From the sequence record NC_024784.1: DNA of 46,440 nt, one strand, 5' to 3'. Position 1 is the stretch's first letter; every line of letters begins with the position of its first letter. The notes beneath the pieces were generated by a model. That model made no database searches. It had not been told where the DNA came from and was given only the letters and a program-made list of their open reading frames with translations. Positions 17,553-22,667 of the stretch are shown here, in pieces. Origin of the DNA: Escherichia phage vB_EcoS_AHS24. Made by a program: the position numbers and the translations under genes.

Positions 17553-17603
17553 ATTTAGTGTAGAATGGCACAAATGGTTAAACAAACAACGAGGTTATAT
17601 GAT

Positions 17604-20600
17604 ATGGCCGATTTGCCAAAGATTTATGGAAGCAAGGGTGGTAGCAAGAAGCCGCACACGCCTGTAGAGCAAGAAGATAACCTGATTTCACTTAACAAGA
17701 TTAAGGTGCTACTGGCTGTAGCTGATGGCGAAGTTGATTCTAGCTTCTCACTTAAGGATGTTTACCTTGCTGACGTTCCAGTACAGAACCAGGATAACTC
17801 ATTCAACTATGAAGGTGTGACAGCTGAGTTTCGCGCCGGCACTCAATCCCAAGATTACATCGCAGGACTAGATGGCGCGACATCAGAGATTCAGGTTAGT
17901 CGTGAAATTAACAAAGACACACCTTACATCATCGCAGTTAACAACAGTCAGCTATCAGCAATCCGCGTTAAACTGTTCTGGCCTCGACTCGTTAAGCAAG
18001 AAGAGAATGGAGATTTAAATGGAACAACATGTGAATATGCAATCGATTTATCAGTTAATGGCGCAGCGTACACGGAATATACCAGAGGCGTGGCTAACGG
18101 TAAAACTACAACAGGTTACGACCGCAGCATCAGGGTTAACCTACCAGCCGAGTTTAGCAGCGCTCTTGTTCGTATTAGGAAGTTAACGCCAGACTCAACA
18201 AGTAGCACTCTGGTTAACGGAATGCAGATTACAACCTATCAGGAAGTAATCGACGCTAAGTTCCGCTACCCTCTTACGGCACTTGTTTATGTGGAGTTCA
18301 GTTCTGACCTGTTCCCTAATGGCATCCCAACGATAGCCATTAAGAAAAAGTGGAAGCTTATCCGTGTGCCGACAAACTACAATCCAGAGACAAGAACTTA
18401 TAGCGGAGCATGGAATGGAACCTTTAAAATGGCATGGTCTGACAACCCGGCCTGGGTTTTATATGACCTGGTGGTTAGCCAGCGTTACGGTTTAGATCAG
18501 CGAGAACTTGGTGTTGAGATTGATAAATGGGGTCTGTATGAAGCAGCGCAATTCTGCGACCAGATGGTTCCTGATGGTAAGGGTGGAATGGAGCCGCGAT
18601 ATACTTGTAACGTTGTCATTCAGCAGAAAGTGGAAGCGTATCAGCTTATTCGTGACATCTGTTCTATCTTCCGCGGTTTAACCTTCTATGATGGTGAGCA
18701 AATCGGGATTGTTGTAGACAGGCCGCGCCAGCCAAGCTATGTGTTCACTAATGATAACGTTGTTGATGGATTGTTTAACAGGACATTCTCTAGCGACAAG
18801 AGCCTTTACACGACAGCCAACGTTCAGTTTGATGACGAGCAGAACAACTACCAGCAGGACGTAGAGCCAGTATTCGACTTAGAAGCAACACGCCGATTTG
18901 GTTACAACCCTGTAGACTTGACTGCAATTGGCTGCGTAAGGCGAAGCGAGGCTAACCGCCGTGGTCGTTGGTTGCTGAAAACAAACCTTCGCAGTGAAAC
19001 GGTAACGTTCACAACTGGCCTCGAAGGCATGATTCCTATGATTGGTGATGTAATTGCTGTTAATGACCAGGCATGGTCAAGCAACTACACATTAAACCTT
19101 TCTGGTCGAATTGTTGAAGCTACAGGTTTGCAGGTCTTCGTACCATTCGCTATTGATGCTGACCCTGGCGACAGGATTTTAATCAACAAGCCAGATGGGA
19201 GCCCAGAGTACAGGACTATCGCTTCAGTATCTGCCGATAAGTTGACGCTTGAACTGAATACAGCATTCAGCTTCACACCTCAGCCGGATACGGTATTTGC
19301 AATCGACAAGCAGAATCTGGCGTTGCAGCAATACGTTGTGACAGGAATTCAAAAAGCAAACACGGACGGCGAGGATTCATTCCAGTACAGCATCACTGCG
19401 GTGCAGTATGACCCGAACAAGTATGACGAGATTGACTATGGTGTGAATATTGACGACAGGCCAACAAGTATCGTTGACCCTGACAGGATTTTGCCACCTG
19501 AAAATATCACCGTTACTAGTTACAGCAAGGTAGTTCAGGGTTTAAGCGTTGAGACGATGGTTATTGGTTACGACAAGGTGCAGTATGCGAAAACATACAA
19601 CGTACAATGGCGTAAGAACAATGGTAACTGGATTAACGTACCAGAGACGGCTAACACCGAGGTTGATATTGAAGGAATTTACGCTGGCATCTACGACGTA
19701 AGGGTTCGTGCCGTAACTGACCAGAAATCAGTATCTGCCTGGTCTGATATAACGACAGTTAGCCTGACCGGCAAGATTGGTGAACCTTCGGAGCCGCCTG
19801 TAATTACCGCATCTGATGATGAGGTTTTCGGGATTAGGGTTAAGTGGGGTTTTCCTACTGATTCAGCTGACACTGCGTACACTGAGCTTCAGCAGGTTCC
19901 TGATAATGGTGACGGTACATACAATCCAGAGAGCGCATCGCTGCTTACACTGGTTCCGTATCCTCAGTACGAATACTGGCACACCACTTTACCAGCAGGT
20001 AACGTGAGGTGGTACAGAGCGAGGATTATTGACAGGATAGGTAACGTATCGCCATGGACTGATTTTGTAAGGGGCATGGCATCTGACGACGTAAGTGCAA
20101 TAATTGGTGATATCAAGGTTGATATCGAAAGCTCTGATGGTTACAAGTACCTACTTCAGAACGCCATTGATGCAAACACGGATATCCAGAATCAGGCTGA
20201 GGCAATTATAGAGAACGCCCTGGCAAACGATACTGACGTTCGCGTTATGAAGCGCGAGAATGGCGCAAGGAAGGCTGAATATCGTCAGGCTGTAAGTTTG
20301 ATTGCTGATGAAACTCAGGCCCGTGTGGACGCTCTCACGCAGCTTAAAGCGCAGATTGATGATGAGATTGTTGGTCAGATTACGACAATTGAAACCGCGC
20401 TTGCTACGGAGACCGAAGCCAGGGCTACAGCTGATACTCAATTAAGCGCAAGGCTTGGTGATAACGAGGCGGCTTTGAATCAGAAGCTTGACTCTTACGC
20501 TACGGTTGAAGGGGTTGGTGTTCAGTACGGCGTTAAGCTTGGCCTGAAGTACAATGGAGTTGAGTACGGCGCTGGAATGAGCATGGAGTTAACTGGTAGT

Positions 20601-20990
20601 GGTGGAAATGTTCGTAGTCAGTTTATTTTTGATGCTAACAGGTTCGCAATCAGTAACGGCATTAGTTCTGGTTCCGGTCAGTGGTCGTTACCTTTCGTTG
20701 TGGAGAATAACCAGGTGTTCATTCAGAGCGCGGTGATTCAGGATGGTTCAATTACTAACGCGAAGATTGGTAACAGGATTCAATCAAACAACTATGTTGC
20801 TGGTAGTGCTGGTTGGGCAATTGATAAATCTGGTTTTGCTGAGTTAAGTAACGCTACCGTTCGCGGTAGTTTGTACGCTAACAATGGTAACTTCGCGTTT
20901 AACGGAACCAACAATACTGTCGTAATAAACAATAACGGCATAACTGTTAATTTACCAAATGGAGGTAGGGTAGTGGTTGGAGTATGGTAA
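17604..20990 (+). CDS. tail tip / host specificity protein (lambda J-like)
   Basis: >1100 aa after K and I; ATG 17604 with GAGG RBS (ORF track start 17565). Confidence 0.85.
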   Translation: MADLPKIYGSKGGSKKPHTPVEQEDNLISLNKIKVLLAVADGEVDSSFSLKDVYLADVPVQNQDNSFNYEGVTAEFRAGTQSQDYIAGLDGATSEIQVSREINKDTPYIIAVNNSQLSAIRVKLFWPRLVKQEENGDLNGTTCEYAIDLSVNGAAYTEYTRGVANGKTTTGYDRSIRVNLPAEFSSALVRIRKLTPDSTSSTLVNGMQITTYQEVIDAKFRYPLTALVYVEFSSDLFPNGIPTIAIKKKWKLIRVPTNYNPETRTYSGAWNGTFKMAWSDNPAWVLYDLVVSQRYGLDQRELGVEIDKWGLYEAAQFCDQMVPDGKGGMEPRYTCNVVIQQKVEAYQLIRDICSIFRGLTFYDGEQIGIVVDRPRQPSYVFTNDNVVDGLFNRTFSSDKSLYTTANVQFDDEQNNYQQDVEPVFDLEATRRFGYNPVDLTAIGCVRRSEANRRGRWLLKTNLRSETVTFTTGLEGMIPMIGDVIAVNDQAWSSNYTLNLSGRIVEATGLQVFVPFAIDADPGDRILINKPDGSPEYRTIASVSADKLTLELNTAFSFTPQPDTVFAIDKQNLALQQYVVTGIQKANTDGEDSFQYSITAVQYDPNKYDEIDYGVNIDDRPTSIVDPDRILPPENITVTSYSKVVQGLSVETMVIGYDKVQYAKTYNVQWRKNNGNWINVPETANTEVDIEGIYAGIYDVRVRAVTDQKSVSAWSDITTVSLTGKIGEPSEPPVITASDDEVFGIRVKWGFPTDSADTAYTELQQVPDNGDGTYNPESASLLTLVPYPQYEYWHTTLPAGNVRWYRARIIDRIGNVSPWTDFVRGMASDDVSAIIGDIKVDIESSDGYKYLLQNAIDANTDIQNQAEAIIENALANDTDVRVMKRENGARKAEYRQAVSLIADETQARVDALTQLKAQIDDEIVGQITTIETALATETEARATADTQLSARLGDNEAALNQKLDSYATVEGVGVQYGVKLGLKYNGVEYGAGMSMELTGSGGNVRSQFIFDANRFAISNGISSGSGQWSLPFVVENNQVFIQSAVIQDGSITNAKIGNRIQSNNYVAGSAGWAIDKSGFAELSNATVRGSLYANNGNFAFNGTNNTVVINNNGITVNLPNGGRVVVGVW

Positions 20991-20996
20991 ATGATT

Positions 20997-21020
20997 AAGC
21001 CCCTTTCGGGGCTTTTTCTT
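20997..21020. terminator. bidirectional intrinsic terminator
   Basis: AAGCCCC-tttc-GGGGCTT flanked by A/T runs between convergent J-like and RBP genes. Confidence 0.7.
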
Positions 21021-21992
21021 TTAGTAGAAGTTGGGAATAAATGGAAGTGCCATTGATATGTTTGTATCAAATGGGAATTGCGCGCCAGTTTGAGTTGAAT
21101 AGTTACCTATAACAGTGCCTGGGACGGCTCTAACTGAACCTCCAGACATGCAAACACCCTTGTATCGTAAGTTATTATATCCACCAGTGACTCTAGTTGT
21201 CGCTCCGCATCTAAGTATTGGGAAGAACCCACCATTCACCGACTGGTAACCATTATTAATCTGCATAAATCCACTTAGAACAAATGGCCTCCTGACGCTA
21301 GAGAAAACTATCTGCCCAGCGCTGTTTGATATCGTTAAACCCGGACCAGCTACTGGAGGTGTATTATTGAAAATAACTAACTGAACGTAAGTACTTGCAG
21401 CAACATCATCAATCCCATTGTATGTTATATCCCTACACCATATCGTACTACCATCACTTTCAAGGGATACGTTTGGGTTATCCCATTTACCAAAAGGAAT
21501 GCCGCCAACTGGCAATGATGCAGAGCCATTAACCTGAATGCCACCAACCCAAGCAGCAGTCATTAATCTGGAATTGCTTGATATCGCTGTAAAGTCAGTC
21601 GAGTTCTCAACAAGGACACCGGGGATTGATTGTGATGATGCTGGTAAAATCTCAAAGCACTGACCGCCAAACTGCAATATGCGACCATTAGCGCCGTTAA
21701 AGTTACTTAATGTAATCCTTCCAACCCCATCGTTAACCTTCGAGAACCCATTCATGTAATAAACTTCTGGTATAACATCATATGCATCAACATAAACAGC
21801 CTGAGTTGGCAGGCAGAATGCTGTTGAGCCAGGAGTCATAGTCAAACCGAAATCCCATGATGATGCTGGTGAGCTTAACCCGATAGTGTTTATTGAACCA
21901 GTCACGGCTGGAACTCTCAAGCCAGCTGTGATTTCCATTGCTGGCCTTCCGTCATTCAAATCTATCAAGATACCTTGAGGCATTATTTCCAC
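21021..21992 (-). CDS. receptor-binding protein (putative)
   Basis: 323 aa reverse-strand ORF downstream of J-like gene, translationally coupled to upstream lipoprotein gene. Confidence 0.45.
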
Positions 21993-22226
21993 TCCTTTGA
22001 GCCGTGATCTGCAACTGAGCCGCCGTAGCCTCCACCAACCTTTTGCTCAATACCAGCATAACGAATATCAACCTCTCCAGCTGGAACAACTACGCCACCC
22101 TTCCATTTAGCTACGCATACACCAGAGGCCTGAGTTGCACACCATCCGTCAGGTCGCGGGCCAGAAGAACAACCTACTGTCATGATTACTGCTGCTGCGA
22201 TGATTGCTGATTTGATGAAGTTAGTC
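21983..22226 (-). CDS. lipoprotein, putative superinfection-exclusion (Cor/Llp-like)
   Basis: Signal peptide [20 protein letters not shown] with Cys at lipobox position; 81 aa from ATG 22226 with AAGGAA RBS; ORF track extends to 22303. Confidence 0.55.
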
Positions 22227-22267
22227 ATTTTGTATTCCTTAGTAAGTATGTTTCGTTTCGATGGAGT

Positions 22268-22314
22268 AACTATAGCAAAGGCTGCCGCGGTAGTCTTTAG
22301 CAAATCGTGCTATT
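22268..22314 (-). promoter_or_regulatory. promoter cassette copy (minus strand)
   Basis: Minus-strand AAATAGCACGATTTGCTAAAG, 23-bp spacer, TATAGTTAC, leader TCCATCGAAACGAAAC; upstream of lipoprotein/RBP operon. Confidence 0.6.
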
Positions 22315-22380
22315 TGATATACGCGTAACCGATGTAACTCGATGTATACAATCTCATCCGCGGAAAATTATATACGCTTT

Positions 22381-22462
22381 TTACGCGCAGATACGCATTG
22401 GTTACATTTATAAATCCTTATATAATAAGGGTTTGGAGTATTATTATTATTATATATATTAC
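22381..22462. repeat. AT-rich element with (TTA)4 microsatellite, copy A
   Basis: GGTTACATTTATAAATCCTTATATAATAA...TTATTATTATTATATATAT; homologous to 42262..42342. Confidence 0.6.
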
Positions 22463-22667
22463 TATGTATATCTTGTAACTACTCTCTATAGCTATGTTGG
22501 TATGTTTTTCTAAAATACTATGTTTGATTTCCTGTTAAGGATTAAATGCATATAGATATAGATAGGGTGCAAATTTGGTGGATACATTAGTTACAAGAGT
22601 TACACTCAGCATCCATGCGGCGTGCGAAGTCTCAAAGCGTATTTGGGTGCGTTTTACACCGATATAC

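Follow-up and report, generated by a model that had tools for sequence, protein, structure and literature searches.

Several phages related to the one analyzed in this work are known to exploit the outer-membrane protein LptD. For these relatives, either the binding of a phage protein to LptDE or the loss of infection on lptD loop mutants is described in three reports (PMC8594841, PMC13035648, PMC12685063). Indeed, phage OzMSK infected neither two lptD loop mutants nor an engineered loop-11 deletion (Black et al. 2025, PMC13035648), its protein OzMSK_038 is annotated as a [quoted passage not shown], and the homologous protein of phage Rogue1 was listed in 2025 among the predicted binders of LptD (PMC13035648). 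According to the available sections of Dunbar et al. 2025 (PMC12685063), cryo-EM places RBP-Oeko, the receptor-binding protein of phage Oekolampad, at the extracellular face of LptDE, while the lipoprotein Rtp45 of phage Rtp was solved on the periplasmic face of the same complex, the exclusion mechanism being derived from the structure. In the same sections, residues 30-35 of Rtp45 form a beta-strand pairing with LptD 318-323, the exclusion protein of Oekolampad itself shares 35% identity with Rtp45, and the steric loop displacement exerted by Rtp45 is set against the long-range allostery of Llp. In addition, a preprint (10.64898/2026.04.02.716166) reported that four unrelated receptor-binding families correspond one-to-one to FhuA, BtuB, LptD, and YncD and that, among 64 T1-like phages screened, the DUF6453-type family led to LptD only. 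The type of module, the receptor, and the structural mechanism discussed below have all been published between 2021 and 2025, and our analysis adds no new biology to them.

The window, that is, the whole stretch of 46,440 nucleotides analyzed here, is 100% identical to GenBank KF771236 (bV_EcoS_AHP24; Rogunavirus, Drexlerviridae). We suggest that it very probably harbors an LptD-specific operon of a T1-like siphophage, combining a terminal-receptor protein and an exclusion protein. What is directly visible in AHP24 is the gene structure, the family membership, the conservation of the Rtp45 structural residues, and the synteny; what we infer is that the receptor-binding protein sits in the virion and binds LptD, that the lipoprotein acts in exclusion, and that the element preceding the operon is active as a promoter. 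This reading is supported by the full-length homology to structurally and genetically characterized proteins and by the three reports cited above (PMC8594841, PMC13035648, PMC12685063). An earlier note on this DNA had interpreted the locus, on the model of T1- and T5-like phages, as a receptor-binding and exclusion module; the type of module stands, but the predicted receptor is LptD rather than FhuA, and the lipoprotein, in sequence comparison with Cor, does not appear to be a homologue of Cor/Llp.

As far as the organization of the locus is concerned, the gene of the J-like central tail fibre/tail tip protein, AHP24_24, occupies positions 17565..20990 of the plus strand (its start is placed at 17604 in GenBank). 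Convergent with it, on the minus strand, lie the genes of the DUF6453 receptor-binding protein AHP24_25 (21021..21983, with the stop codon at 21021..21023) and of the Rtp45-family lipoprotein AHP24_26 (21983..22228), that is, the reverse-strand pair following J that the earlier note had described, with both genes located where it had put them. A lipoprotein gene followed by a receptor-binding-protein gene, convergent with J, is found in six related loci (Rtp, OzMSK, CEB_EC3a, pSf-1, Bas83, and mEp515). Neither gene is a chance open reading frame, since the Pfam scores are far over the cut-offs (461.8 bits for DUF6453, cut-off 25, and 130.6 bits for PF24052 Phage_lipoprotein, cut-off 27) and homologues are present in hundreds of phage records, 378 for AHP24_25 and 383 for the lipoprotein. 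The translational coupling previously proposed for the two genes also agrees with the sequence of their junction (21981..21997, minus strand), where a Shine-Dalgarno AAGGAG (21997..21992) precedes the ATG of AHP24_25 (21983..21981) by an 8-nt spacer and where the stop of the lipoprotein gene and the following start overlap by one base in TAATG. The annotations of Rtp, OzMSK, CEB_EC3a, mEp515, and vB_Ec-G8 show an identical overlap of 1 nt. Between the two convergent transcription units, a GC-rich hairpin of 7 bp (20997..21014, AAGCCCC-TTTC-GGGGCTT) is followed by a strong T-run on the plus strand; on the minus strand it has a folding energy of -14.7 kcal/mol (z = -3.5) and a poor U-tract after it. 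This hairpin is the terminator of both convergent genes, although the weak minus-strand U-tract counts against it; the GenBank record has terminators on both strands.

AHP24_25, which GenBank labels “hypothetical protein”, is a soluble protein of 33.8 kDa. It is 320 aa long, since its homologues begin at the position of the ATG (M-x-x-G-I...) and the GenBank protein also has 320 aa; the 323 aa counted previously would require a GTG start (21992..21990), which we rejected, as this codon overlaps the Shine-Dalgarno sequence and both homologues and GenBank favor the ATG. The comparison with known Drexlerviridae receptor-binding proteins, recommended as a check on the earlier interpretation, returned full-length matches. 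Indeed, residues 2-320 match PDB 9RPT chain C (RBP-Oeko) with E=1e-66, and Gln299, an LptD-contacting residue of RBP-Oeko, aligns with a Gln. The identity is 99.4% to the BECP10 protein, 99.1% to the Rogue1 protein, 88.1% to OzMSK_038, and 41-49% to the proteins of Rtp (Rtp44), Oekolampad, Bas83, FritzHoffmann, and Oslo; at 100% coverage, the values are 88% for OzMSK, 43% for FritzHoffmann, 42% for Oekolampad, and 41% for Rtp44, the last being itself 96% identical to the Bas01 receptor-binding protein. Both Rtp and FritzHoffmann, whose proteins are 41-43% identical to AHP24_25, are LptD-linked. Thus, with respect to the proteins of phages whose LptD dependence was assigned by experiment, AHP24_25 exceeds the 30% identity and the 99% coverage by which the family has been delimited (preprint 10.64898/2026.04.02.716166). 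A search of NCBIfam gave no useful match. The distal loops are the least conserved region across the DUF6453 family (see also PMC13035648), and, with 42% identity to the solved protein, the binding mode of AHP24_25 could differ in detail.

The lipoprotein gene extends from the ATG at 22228 to the TAA at 21985..21983 and is preceded, 7 nt before the ATG, by a Shine-Dalgarno AAGGA (22240..22236). It encodes an 81-aa precursor with a mature form of 62 aa (6.3 kDa). The signal peptide ending in ...IMTVGC that had been noticed earlier is indeed present, with a lipobox ...IMTVG-CSS and the cysteine at residue 20; hydropathy and the alignment of the lipobox indicate that the sole hydrophobic stretch of the protein, residues 4-22, corresponds to this signal peptide. 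The protein matches PDB 9RPS chain D (Rtp45) with E=1.4e-35 and shares 77% identity with Rtp45 and 93% with OzMSK_039. All three cysteines of Rtp45 are conserved, that is, Cys20, which aligns with the lipid anchor, and Cys30 and Cys38, which form the disulfide; the residue at +2 is Ser, so there is no inner-membrane retention signal. Moreover, residues 30-35 (CATQAS), corresponding to the Rtp45 strand that pairs with LptD, are identical in the two proteins. AHP24_26 is therefore predicted to be a superinfection-exclusion lipoprotein of the Rtp45 family. Its membership of the Cor/Llp group, on the other hand, was rejected. The homology to Cor that the earlier note had expected does not extend beyond the signal peptide and lipobox, BLASTP against T1 Cor aligning residues 9-25 only; T1 Cor reaches 17.7 bits on PF24052, under the cut-off of 27, and has neither Cys30/Cys38 nor the PAGExD and KEW motifs, and the PHROGs match of AHP24_26 is phrog_4281 only. 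In the light of these comparisons, AHP24_26 appears to work like Cor/Llp while being a member of neither family, Cor being the one compared by sequence.

The presumed carrier of the receptor-binding protein is AHP24_24, which contains the Pfam domains FNIII-A_GpJ, Phage-tail_3, and Phage_Tail_Tip, belongs to the PHROG “central tail fiber J”, and is 82% identical to Rtp43; the J-like protein was found in AHP24 virions by mass spectrometry (PMC4070988). Its C-terminal portion of about 100 aa (residues 1041-1141; 20685..20987, plus strand) is disproportionately conserved in distant phages possessing a DUF6453 protein. The identity of this segment is 71% in Oslo, versus 25-33% for the parts of J that are N-terminal to residue 900, and 55% in FritzHoffmann, versus 26-36%, such parts being counted where they aligned over their length. 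In T1, which carries a FhuA module, the tip is instead the least conserved segment of J (47% versus 58-67%), and the GpJ tip has been flagged as associated with specificity (preprint 10.64898/2026.04.02.716166). It is likely, on the basis of these alignments, that residues 1041-1141 represent a docking tip co-inherited with the DUF6453 receptor-binding protein.

Upstream of the lipoprotein gene, the minus strand carries a Drexlerviridae repeat cassette (22250..22315), consisting of a box ATAGCACGATTTGCTAAA (22313..22296), a -10-like TATAGT (22274..22269), and a conserved leader CATCGAAACGA (22263..22253). The repeat, ATAGCAC-N4-TTGCTAAA plus a -10-like hexamer, is present in the window in 15 oriented copies; it emerged under looser matching, a search for the 47-nt cassette, exact or with 3 mismatches, having retrieved only itself. 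The hexamer, T-A-N-N-N-T, lies 37-39 nt from the start of the box in all the copies (15/15), and in ten of them the first long ATG-initiated open reading frame of the same strand is 71-99 nt downstream. The earlier note had attributed the transcription of the operon to a cassette at 22268..22314. This is a real member of the repeat, 85 nt upstream of the lipoprotein ATG, whose box has one mismatch to the consensus of the window, whereas its role as a promoter goes beyond what the repeat itself tells; we regard the element at 22250..22315 as a putative promoter of the lipoprotein/receptor-binding-protein operon. It might be argued that the cassette is instead an operator, a “stoperator”, or an UP-like element and that transcription starts elsewhere, for example at the separate promoter that GenBank annotates at 22449..22479. 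Such a scenario, which we consider rather unlikely, agrees with the silence of a simple sigma-70 scan, which did not call the cassette because no -35 is present at 16-18 nt (a TTGCTA lies 22-23 nt from TATAGT), and with the dyad TAGCA-N5-TGCTA of the box, which looks like a protein-binding site. Moreover, the repeat has been described in TLS, T1, Rtp, and Rogue1, and the authors of the TLS work left the stoperator, the enhancer site, and the UP element as options (PMC11447400). However, the fixed offset of the hexamer in every copy, facing a next gene that usually lies 71-99 nt away, speaks for a promoter, as does the presence of a cassette directly ahead of the lipoprotein gene of Rtp, CEB_EC3a, and pSf-1, which represent three Drexlerviridae subfamilies; in CEB_EC3a, it sits past the stop of a co-oriented upstream gene. 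Besides, should the box be bound by an activator, there would be no conflict between a promoter and a regulatory site. The same scan gave one strong match at 21203..21174, which was set aside, as it falls inside the AHP24_25 gene and within chance expectation (2 sites versus 6.5 expected).

The assignment of the two proteins has also to be weighed against other readings. One might imagine that AHP24_25, although belonging to the DUF6453 family, recognizes another outer-membrane protein of O157:H7, the loops of the AHP24/Rogue1 clade having been switched and the lipoprotein being a relic or acting on the new receptor. The variability of the distal loops (PMC13035648) and the T5-like pb5 homologues, which bind either FhuA or BtuB (preprint 10.64898/2026.04.02.716166), would allow for this, and the AHP24 and BECP10 literature names no receptor for any Rogunavirus. 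We consider it improbable, given the 88% identity to the protein of OzMSK, which is genetically LptD-dependent, the mapping of the DUF6453-type family to LptD alone, and the LptD-contacting residues of Rtp45 retained by the co-encoded lipoprotein. In addition, an O-antigen-focused Tn5 screen of 1500 mutants with the sister phage BECP10, from which clones also resistant to an LPS-core phage were left out, yielded wzy and rfaJ only and no outer-membrane-protein gene, hence no match to a non-essential one; this outcome is consistent with an essential terminal receptor, because transposon insertions cannot recover essential genes such as lptD. Still less credit can be given to the idea that AHP24_25 is no virion protein at all but a membrane protein or moron that acts, together with the lipoprotein, in exclusion or host takeover only. 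This idea draws on the RefSeq label of the homologues (“membrane protein”), on the category of PHROG 1265 (“moron, auxiliary metabolic gene and host takeover”), on a 2026 paper in which the two T1 counterparts adjoining cor are suggested to act in exclusion, and on virion proteomics of AHP24, where seven proteins were identified from excised gel bands and ORF25 was not among them (PMC4070988). Such an absence is expected of a low-copy tip protein, yet it remains an absence. On the other side, AHP24_25 has no hydrophobic or transmembrane-like segment (maximum KD19 = 1.02) and no signal peptide, on which ground we rejected the label “membrane protein”; across families, receptor specificity goes with the allele of the DUF6453 protein, the presence of this protein co-varies with the C-terminal tip of J, and the Oekolampad homologue sits, in the cryo-EM structure, on the extracellular face of LptDE, out of the reach of a cytoplasmic protein. 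Finally, the homologue of AHP24_26 in vB_EcoS_Chapo was deposited as a “u-spanin”, and T1-like phages do encode a lipoprotein u-spanin, so that a lysis function (a unimolecular spanin rather than an exclusion factor) might be envisaged; this appears the most improbable reading of all, since the gene is part of no lysis cassette and is coupled to that of the receptor-binding protein, the product has no C-terminal membrane segment in addition to its signal peptide, and it shares 77% identity with a protein solved on LptDE.

If the LptD-specific operon is accepted, the following model might be proposed. Transcription of the two minus-strand genes would probably start at the repeat cassette, about 34 nt before the ATG of the lipoprotein gene, and the translation of AHP24_25 would be coupled through the TAATG overlap. 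The conserved N-terminal base of AHP24_25 would dock on the C-terminal tip of the J-like fibre. The first contact with the cell is expected from the O157-specific lateral tailspike AHP24_34, a lateral fibre with Tail_spike_N and beta-helix domains; afterwards, the distal loops of AHP24_25 are predicted to enter LptD-LptE, the LPS translocon, at its extracellular face, an insertion that would represent the irreversible step triggering DNA ejection. AHP24_26, in turn, is predicted to undergo export and to receive its lipid at Cys20, and the Ser at +2 suggests that its destination is the inner leaflet of the outer membrane. There, like Rtp45, it would attach to LptD from the periplasm and push extracellular loop 4 outward, sterically preventing the binding of the receptor-binding protein. 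The outcome would be the exclusion of LptD-dependent superinfecting phages and the protection of the progeny from adsorption to debris.

The idea that such modules are swapped between phages, put forward in the earlier note, finds support, with the qualification that the exchange proceeds gene by gene, as revealed by discordant identities. Compared with AHP24, Rtp shows 41% identity in the receptor-binding protein and 77% in the lipoprotein, while in pSf-1 the values are 69% and 36%, respectively. These discordant alleles would fit a lipoprotein able to exclude all LptD phages, whatever the clade of their receptor-binding protein. It is conceivable, even though we propose it only tentatively and with some doubt, that the docking tip of J, the DUF6453 protein, and a lipoprotein of the Rtp45 type form a freely re-assortable LptD kit extending beyond T1-like siphophages and including podoviruses of the Gordonclarkvirinae; if this were true, LptD would be an overlooked terminal receptor of that subfamily. 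For AHP24 and its relatives considered for O157:H7 biocontrol (Rogue1, AKS96, AHP42, BECP10, and C119), the likely terminal receptor is the essential and conserved LptD, and AHP24_26 would make infected cells resistant to further LptD phages; both the receptor and the exclusion gene are relevant for the design of cocktails and for predicting routes of resistance. If the receptor is LptD, cross-exclusion of T1, T5, and phi80 by AHP24_26 is expected to be negative; the phages that it would affect are those dependent on LptD (Rtp, Bas01, Bas02, Bas18, and OzMSK). The analysis also corrects the misleading labels “membrane protein”, “moron”, “Cor”, and “u-spanin”. As a separate observation, the trio of J tip, DUF6453 protein, and lipoprotein was found in podoviruses, namely Gordonclarkvirinae (phiEco32/Kuravirus-like).

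Among the described systems, OzMSK (PQ659294) is the nearest relative whose receptor, LptD, has been determined by experiment. Its OzMSK_038 and OzMSK_039 (88% and 93% identical to the AHP24 proteins) are encoded by genes that likewise overlap by 1 nt and are convergent with J. However, the nearest whole-genome BLASTN relatives of OzMSK are the Braunvirinae Rtp, AugustePiccard, and JeanPiccard, it infects B/K-12 strains, whereas the lateral tailspike of AHP24, a Rogunavirus, limits this phage to O157, and its lipoprotein gene, unlike that of AHP24, has a DNA methylase gene upstream of it. The operon architecture of Rtp (Rtp44/Rtp45; PDB 9RPS, Rtp45-LptDEM) is identical to that of AHP24, but its receptor-binding protein is only 41% identical, while the flanking genes are 77-83% identical, a contrast that points to a different receptor-binding-protein allele in a conserved locus. 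The receptor-binding protein of Oekolampad (RBP-Oeko, bas18; PDB 9RPT, 9RPW, 9RQI), 42% identical over the full length, shares with AHP24_25 the N-terminal base, the core motifs, and the C-terminal PNxY; this phage belongs to another genus, Dhillonvirus, and its distal loops and partner lipoprotein have diverged. In Bas83, a Dhillonvirus like Oekolampad, the lipoprotein is about 37% identical to AHP24_26. The FhuA modules of T1 (gp32/gp31 with Cor) and T5 (pb5 with Llp) follow the same logic, that is, a receptor-binding gene adjacent to those of the tail tip and a small outer-membrane lipoprotein blocking that same receptor from the periplasmic side, but with protein families unrelated to those of AHP24 and with FhuA, not LptD, as receptor. 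The T1 locus comprises J, gp32, gp31, and then cor on the opposite strand, a two-membrane-protein FhuA cassette that AHP24 does not have; no DUF6453 domain was detected in T1 gp31/gp32, and tblastn with the AHP24 proteins on the T1 locus retrieved nothing. Lastly, the cassette shares its motif and its orientation relative to the gene with the 21-nt direct repeat of TLS, aaATAGCACnnnTTGnTAAAA (PMC11447400), from which the start codon is about 76 nt away, compared with 85 nt in AHP24; the fixed -10-like hexamer and the leader are additional features of the AHP24 cassette with respect to the TLS repeat.

Over the 2.5 kb around both genes of the minus-strand operon, the window is 100% identical to KF771236 (bV_EcoS_AHP24; Drexlerviridae, Rogunavirinae, Rogunavirus), window coordinates being those of the record plus one. 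AHP24 is a T1-like, O157:H7-specific phage from Alberta feedlots; its record labels AHP24_25 "hypothetical protein" and AHP24_26 "putative lipoprotein". The earlier note had read here a small lipoprotein gene translationally coupled to a gene for a 323-aa protein, and the arrangement is borne out by the coordinates, the signal peptide and the junction of the two genes. Indeed, the lipoprotein gene (AHP24_26, minus strand) runs from an ATG at 22228, with AAGGA at 7-nt spacing 5' of it, to a TAA at 21985..21983 (81 codons), and its product starts with a classical signal peptide whose lipobox Cys is residue 20, with Ser at +2 (CSS). The stop codon overlaps the start of AHP24_25 as TAATG, and AAGGAG lies 8 nt upstream of that ATG. 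The partner protein exists, but its length must be corrected to 320 aa, because the N-terminus of eleven homologues (M-x-x-G-I-x-I-x-x-N-D-G) falls at this ATG and GenBank uses it as well; the longer product derives from a mechanical ORF start, a GTG overlapping the Shine-Dalgarno sequence. AHP24_25 ends at 21021 (minus strand), 30 nt from the J stop at 20990, and the 7-bp GC-rich hairpin between them forms a good terminator on the J side but a less effective one in the minus-strand direction. Judged by their Pfam scores (DUF6453, 461.8 bits, for AHP24_25; PF24052 Phage_lipoprotein, 130.6 bits, for AHP24_26) and by tblastn homologues in 378 and 383 phage records, respectively, neither gene is a chance ORF. 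A 588-bp divergent region separates the lipoprotein gene from a Rha-family gene. Two intergenic regions contain AT-rich tracts of (TAT)n type, at 42308-42349 and at 22439-22468, the latter inside this divergent region and overlapping a GenBank-annotated promoter (22449..22479).

The homology search agrees with the proposed receptor-binding role of the larger product, which matches a single set of PDB entries, over its full length: chain C of 9RPT, 9RPW and 9RQI (E=1e-66), presented in the structural account of 2025 (PMC12685063) as the LptD-binding receptor-binding protein of Oekolampad. Among relatives whose receptor has been determined, OzMSK is the closest; its OzMSK_038 (88.1% identity) is annotated as LptD receptor-binding protein. 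Two lptD loop mutants and an engineered deletion of loop 11 resist infection by this phage, and the same work lists the Rogue1 protein, 99.1% identical to AHP24_25, as a predicted LptD binder (PMC13035648). The proteins of Rtp (Rtp44), FritzHoffmann, Bas83 and Oslo are 41-48% identical at full coverage, values within the family criterion of a preprint that assigns four unrelated locus-encoded families to FhuA, BtuB, LptD and YncD (10.64898/2026.04.02.716166). On the basis of this homology, the predicted receptor is LptD and not FhuA. The RefSeq label "membrane protein" and the PHROG category "moron" are unsupported, since AHP24_25 has no hydrophobic segment.

The lipoprotein AHP24_26 matches chain D of 9RPS (E=1.4e-35), that is, Rtp45, with 77% identity; identity to OzMSK_039 is 93%. 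As far as the structural description in PMC12685063 goes, Rtp45 was solved bound to LptDE from the periplasm, wedged between LptE and LptM, its hairpin shifts extracellular loop 4 by as much as 20 angstroms, blocking the binding of the receptor-binding protein, and its residues 30-35 pair as a strand with LptD 318-323. These six residues are identical in AHP24_26, which also keeps Cys20 (lipid anchor) and Cys30 and Cys38 (disulfide). Placement in the Cor/Llp family, as had been proposed, was rejected because T1 Cor aligns with AHP24_26 in the signal peptide only, falls short of the PF24052 threshold and does not carry the family Cys, PAGExD and KEW motifs, and because the T1 locus differs: J is followed there by gp32 and gp31, with cor beyond them on the other strand, and the DUF6453 domain is absent from gp31 and gp32. 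The Cor cassette is linked to FhuA (PMC13164509). AHP24_26, a member of the Rtp45 family, is predicted to act like Cor and Llp while belonging to neither, so that the receptor-blocking type of function is retained as a prediction. The name "Cor" given to the homologue of vB_Ec-G8 is an annotation transfer, and the vB_EcoS_Chapo homologue is labelled u-spanin; database labels of this kind ("membrane protein", "moron/host takeover", "Cor superinfection exclusion protein", "u-spanin") are inconsistent and probably wrong.

A further question concerns the promoter cassette assumed to drive the operon from 22268..22314 (minus strand). Its 47-nt string occurs once at ≤3 mismatches, and the element belongs to a family of 15 oriented copies in the window, on both strands, each aimed at the next gene (box starts 15105, 22671, 25139, 30620, 33016, 33701, 34387, 35939, 43668 and 44511 on the plus strand; 22313, 40013, 40211, 41173 and 42008 on the minus strand). 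The box, AAATAGCAC-N4-TTGCTAAA, is followed at a constant offset of 37-39 nt from its start by a T-A-N-N-N-T hexamer, in most cases TATAGT, and then often by CATCGAAACGA. In 10 of the 15 copies the first long same-strand ATG-initiated ORF begins 71-99 nt downstream (85 nt for the lipoprotein cassette), and a cassette directly precedes the homologous lipoprotein gene in Rtp and CEB_EC3a (Braunvirinae) and in pSf-1 (Tempevirinae). TLS has 21 copies of the repeat aaATAGCACnnnTTGnTAAAA, located some 76 nt ahead of start codons; it was also noted in T1, Rtp and Rogue1, its function being left open by the authors (PMC11447400). The spacing between TTGCTA and the -10-like hexamer (22-23 nt) is too great for a sigma-70 -35, and the sigma-70 consensus scan gave no call at the lipoprotein cassette and no -35 at sigma-70 spacing. 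The box contains a dyad, TAGCA-N5-TGCTA, centred at about -42 from the inferred transcription start. With this dyad and no spaced -35, the arrangement is closer to that of an activator-dependent (class II-like) promoter than to that of an ordinary sigma-70 one. Membership of the repeat family is therefore established, while the promoter role is putative, a reasonable but unproven reading, and some other role for the element appears rather improbable.

The idea that the module is swapped between phages is borne out by discordant identities to AHP24, gene by gene. Comparing, in this order, the first 900 aa of J, its last 200 aa, the receptor-binding protein and the lipoprotein, Rtp (83, 76, 41 and 77%) has another allele of the receptor-binding-protein gene set between conserved flanks and pSf-1 (67, 68, 69 and 36%) a different lipoprotein allele; the values are 81, 83, 89 and 86% for CEB_EC3a and 32, 43, 44 and 37% for Bas83. 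The comparison of Rtp, pSf-1 and CEB_EC3a shows that recombination occurs between the two genes and not solely around the whole module, which is thus a mosaic. This is plausible, as the two products would contact LptD from opposite sides and so would be under no need to co-evolve. The C-terminal tip of J (20685-20987) is much better conserved than the rest in the distant phages Oslo, FritzHoffmann, Bas83 and mEp515, all with DUF6453: the last 100 aa reach 71% in Oslo and 55% in FritzHoffmann, against 25-33% and 26-36% for the segments N-terminal to residue 900 aligned over their length. In T1, a phage with the FhuA module, they are the least conserved J segment (47% versus 58-67%). The last 100 aa of J thus track the presence of a DUF6453 protein, a pattern compatible with a docking role, as the preprint 10.64898/2026.04.02.716166 also suggests, and the 3' end of J is probably part of the exchanged unit. 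The AHP24 layout is not universal among the genomes compared: in FritzHoffmann, Salmonella phage Oslo and Klebsiella phage RCIP0005 no lipoprotein gene adjoins that of the receptor-binding protein, and in the latter two the DUF6453 gene is co-oriented with J instead of convergent. Klebsiella T1-like phages encode a lipoprotein 58% identical to AHP24_26.

Gordonclarkvirinae podoviruses carry counterparts of the J tip and of both AHP24 proteins. Three related genes occur in Escherichia phage vB_EcoP-101114UKE3 (NC_070982.1; Gordonclarkvirinae; L014:1839-3843 and L013:1483-1809): a fibre protein of 322 aa whose terminal Phage_Tail_Tip domain aligns to the extreme C-terminus of AHP24 J, a DUF6453 protein directly after it (84.8 bits; 2.5e-8 to 9RPT_C) and, in a different genome region, a 108-aa PF24052 lipoprotein (122 bits) with the motifs RPDGWC...GVC...PSGEID...KEW. 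Weak matches to both AHP24 proteins recur in phiEco32, Kuravirus and LAMP-like phages. These similarities suggest LptD as a candidate terminal receptor of Gordonclarkvirinae and phiEco32-like podoviruses; no literature link of Gordonclarkvirinae to LptD was found in the papers searched. Coliphage-type LptD modules are also present in records labelled with non-enterobacterial hosts, among them PP134917.1 (Pseudomonas PsgS01F), MG065669/70 (Campylobacter A123, A121), OQ221563.1 (Acinetobacter NJ01) and MH230177.1 (Aeromonas SD04), which are probably host mis-assignments or contaminants; the PsgS01F protein is 89.7% identical, and its record, of 44,679 bp, has the exact length of an E. coli phage record.

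What is established is what the genes are and to which families they belong. The adsorption model proposed on that footing is one in which the lateral tailspike AHP24_34 (Tail_spike_N plus beta-helix) would bind the O157 antigen, the receptor-binding protein borne on the J tip would then engage LptD irreversibly, and the lipoprotein made in the infected cell would lock LptD against further phage. The sister phage BECP10 requires the O157 O-antigen, and its reported Tn5 screen of 1500 mutants, clones also resistant to an LPS-core phage being excluded, recovered only wzy and rfaJ (PMC8402813); this is consistent with an essential terminal receptor, since insertions in an essential gene, lptD for example, would not survive to be recovered. 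The one observation that counts against the model is a negative one: ORF25 (AHP24_25) does not figure among the seven proteins identified from gel bands of AHP24 virions. On the whole, an operon of receptor-binding protein and exclusion lipoprotein is supported, with a 320-aa product, LptD in place of FhuA as the predicted receptor, Rtp45 in place of Cor/Llp and a putative promoter. Module type, receptor and structural mechanism have already been published, so that nothing new is claimed for them; according to the same structural account (PMC12685063), Llp acts on FhuA by long-range allostery, whereas the Rtp45-type mechanism is a steric displacement of a loop.
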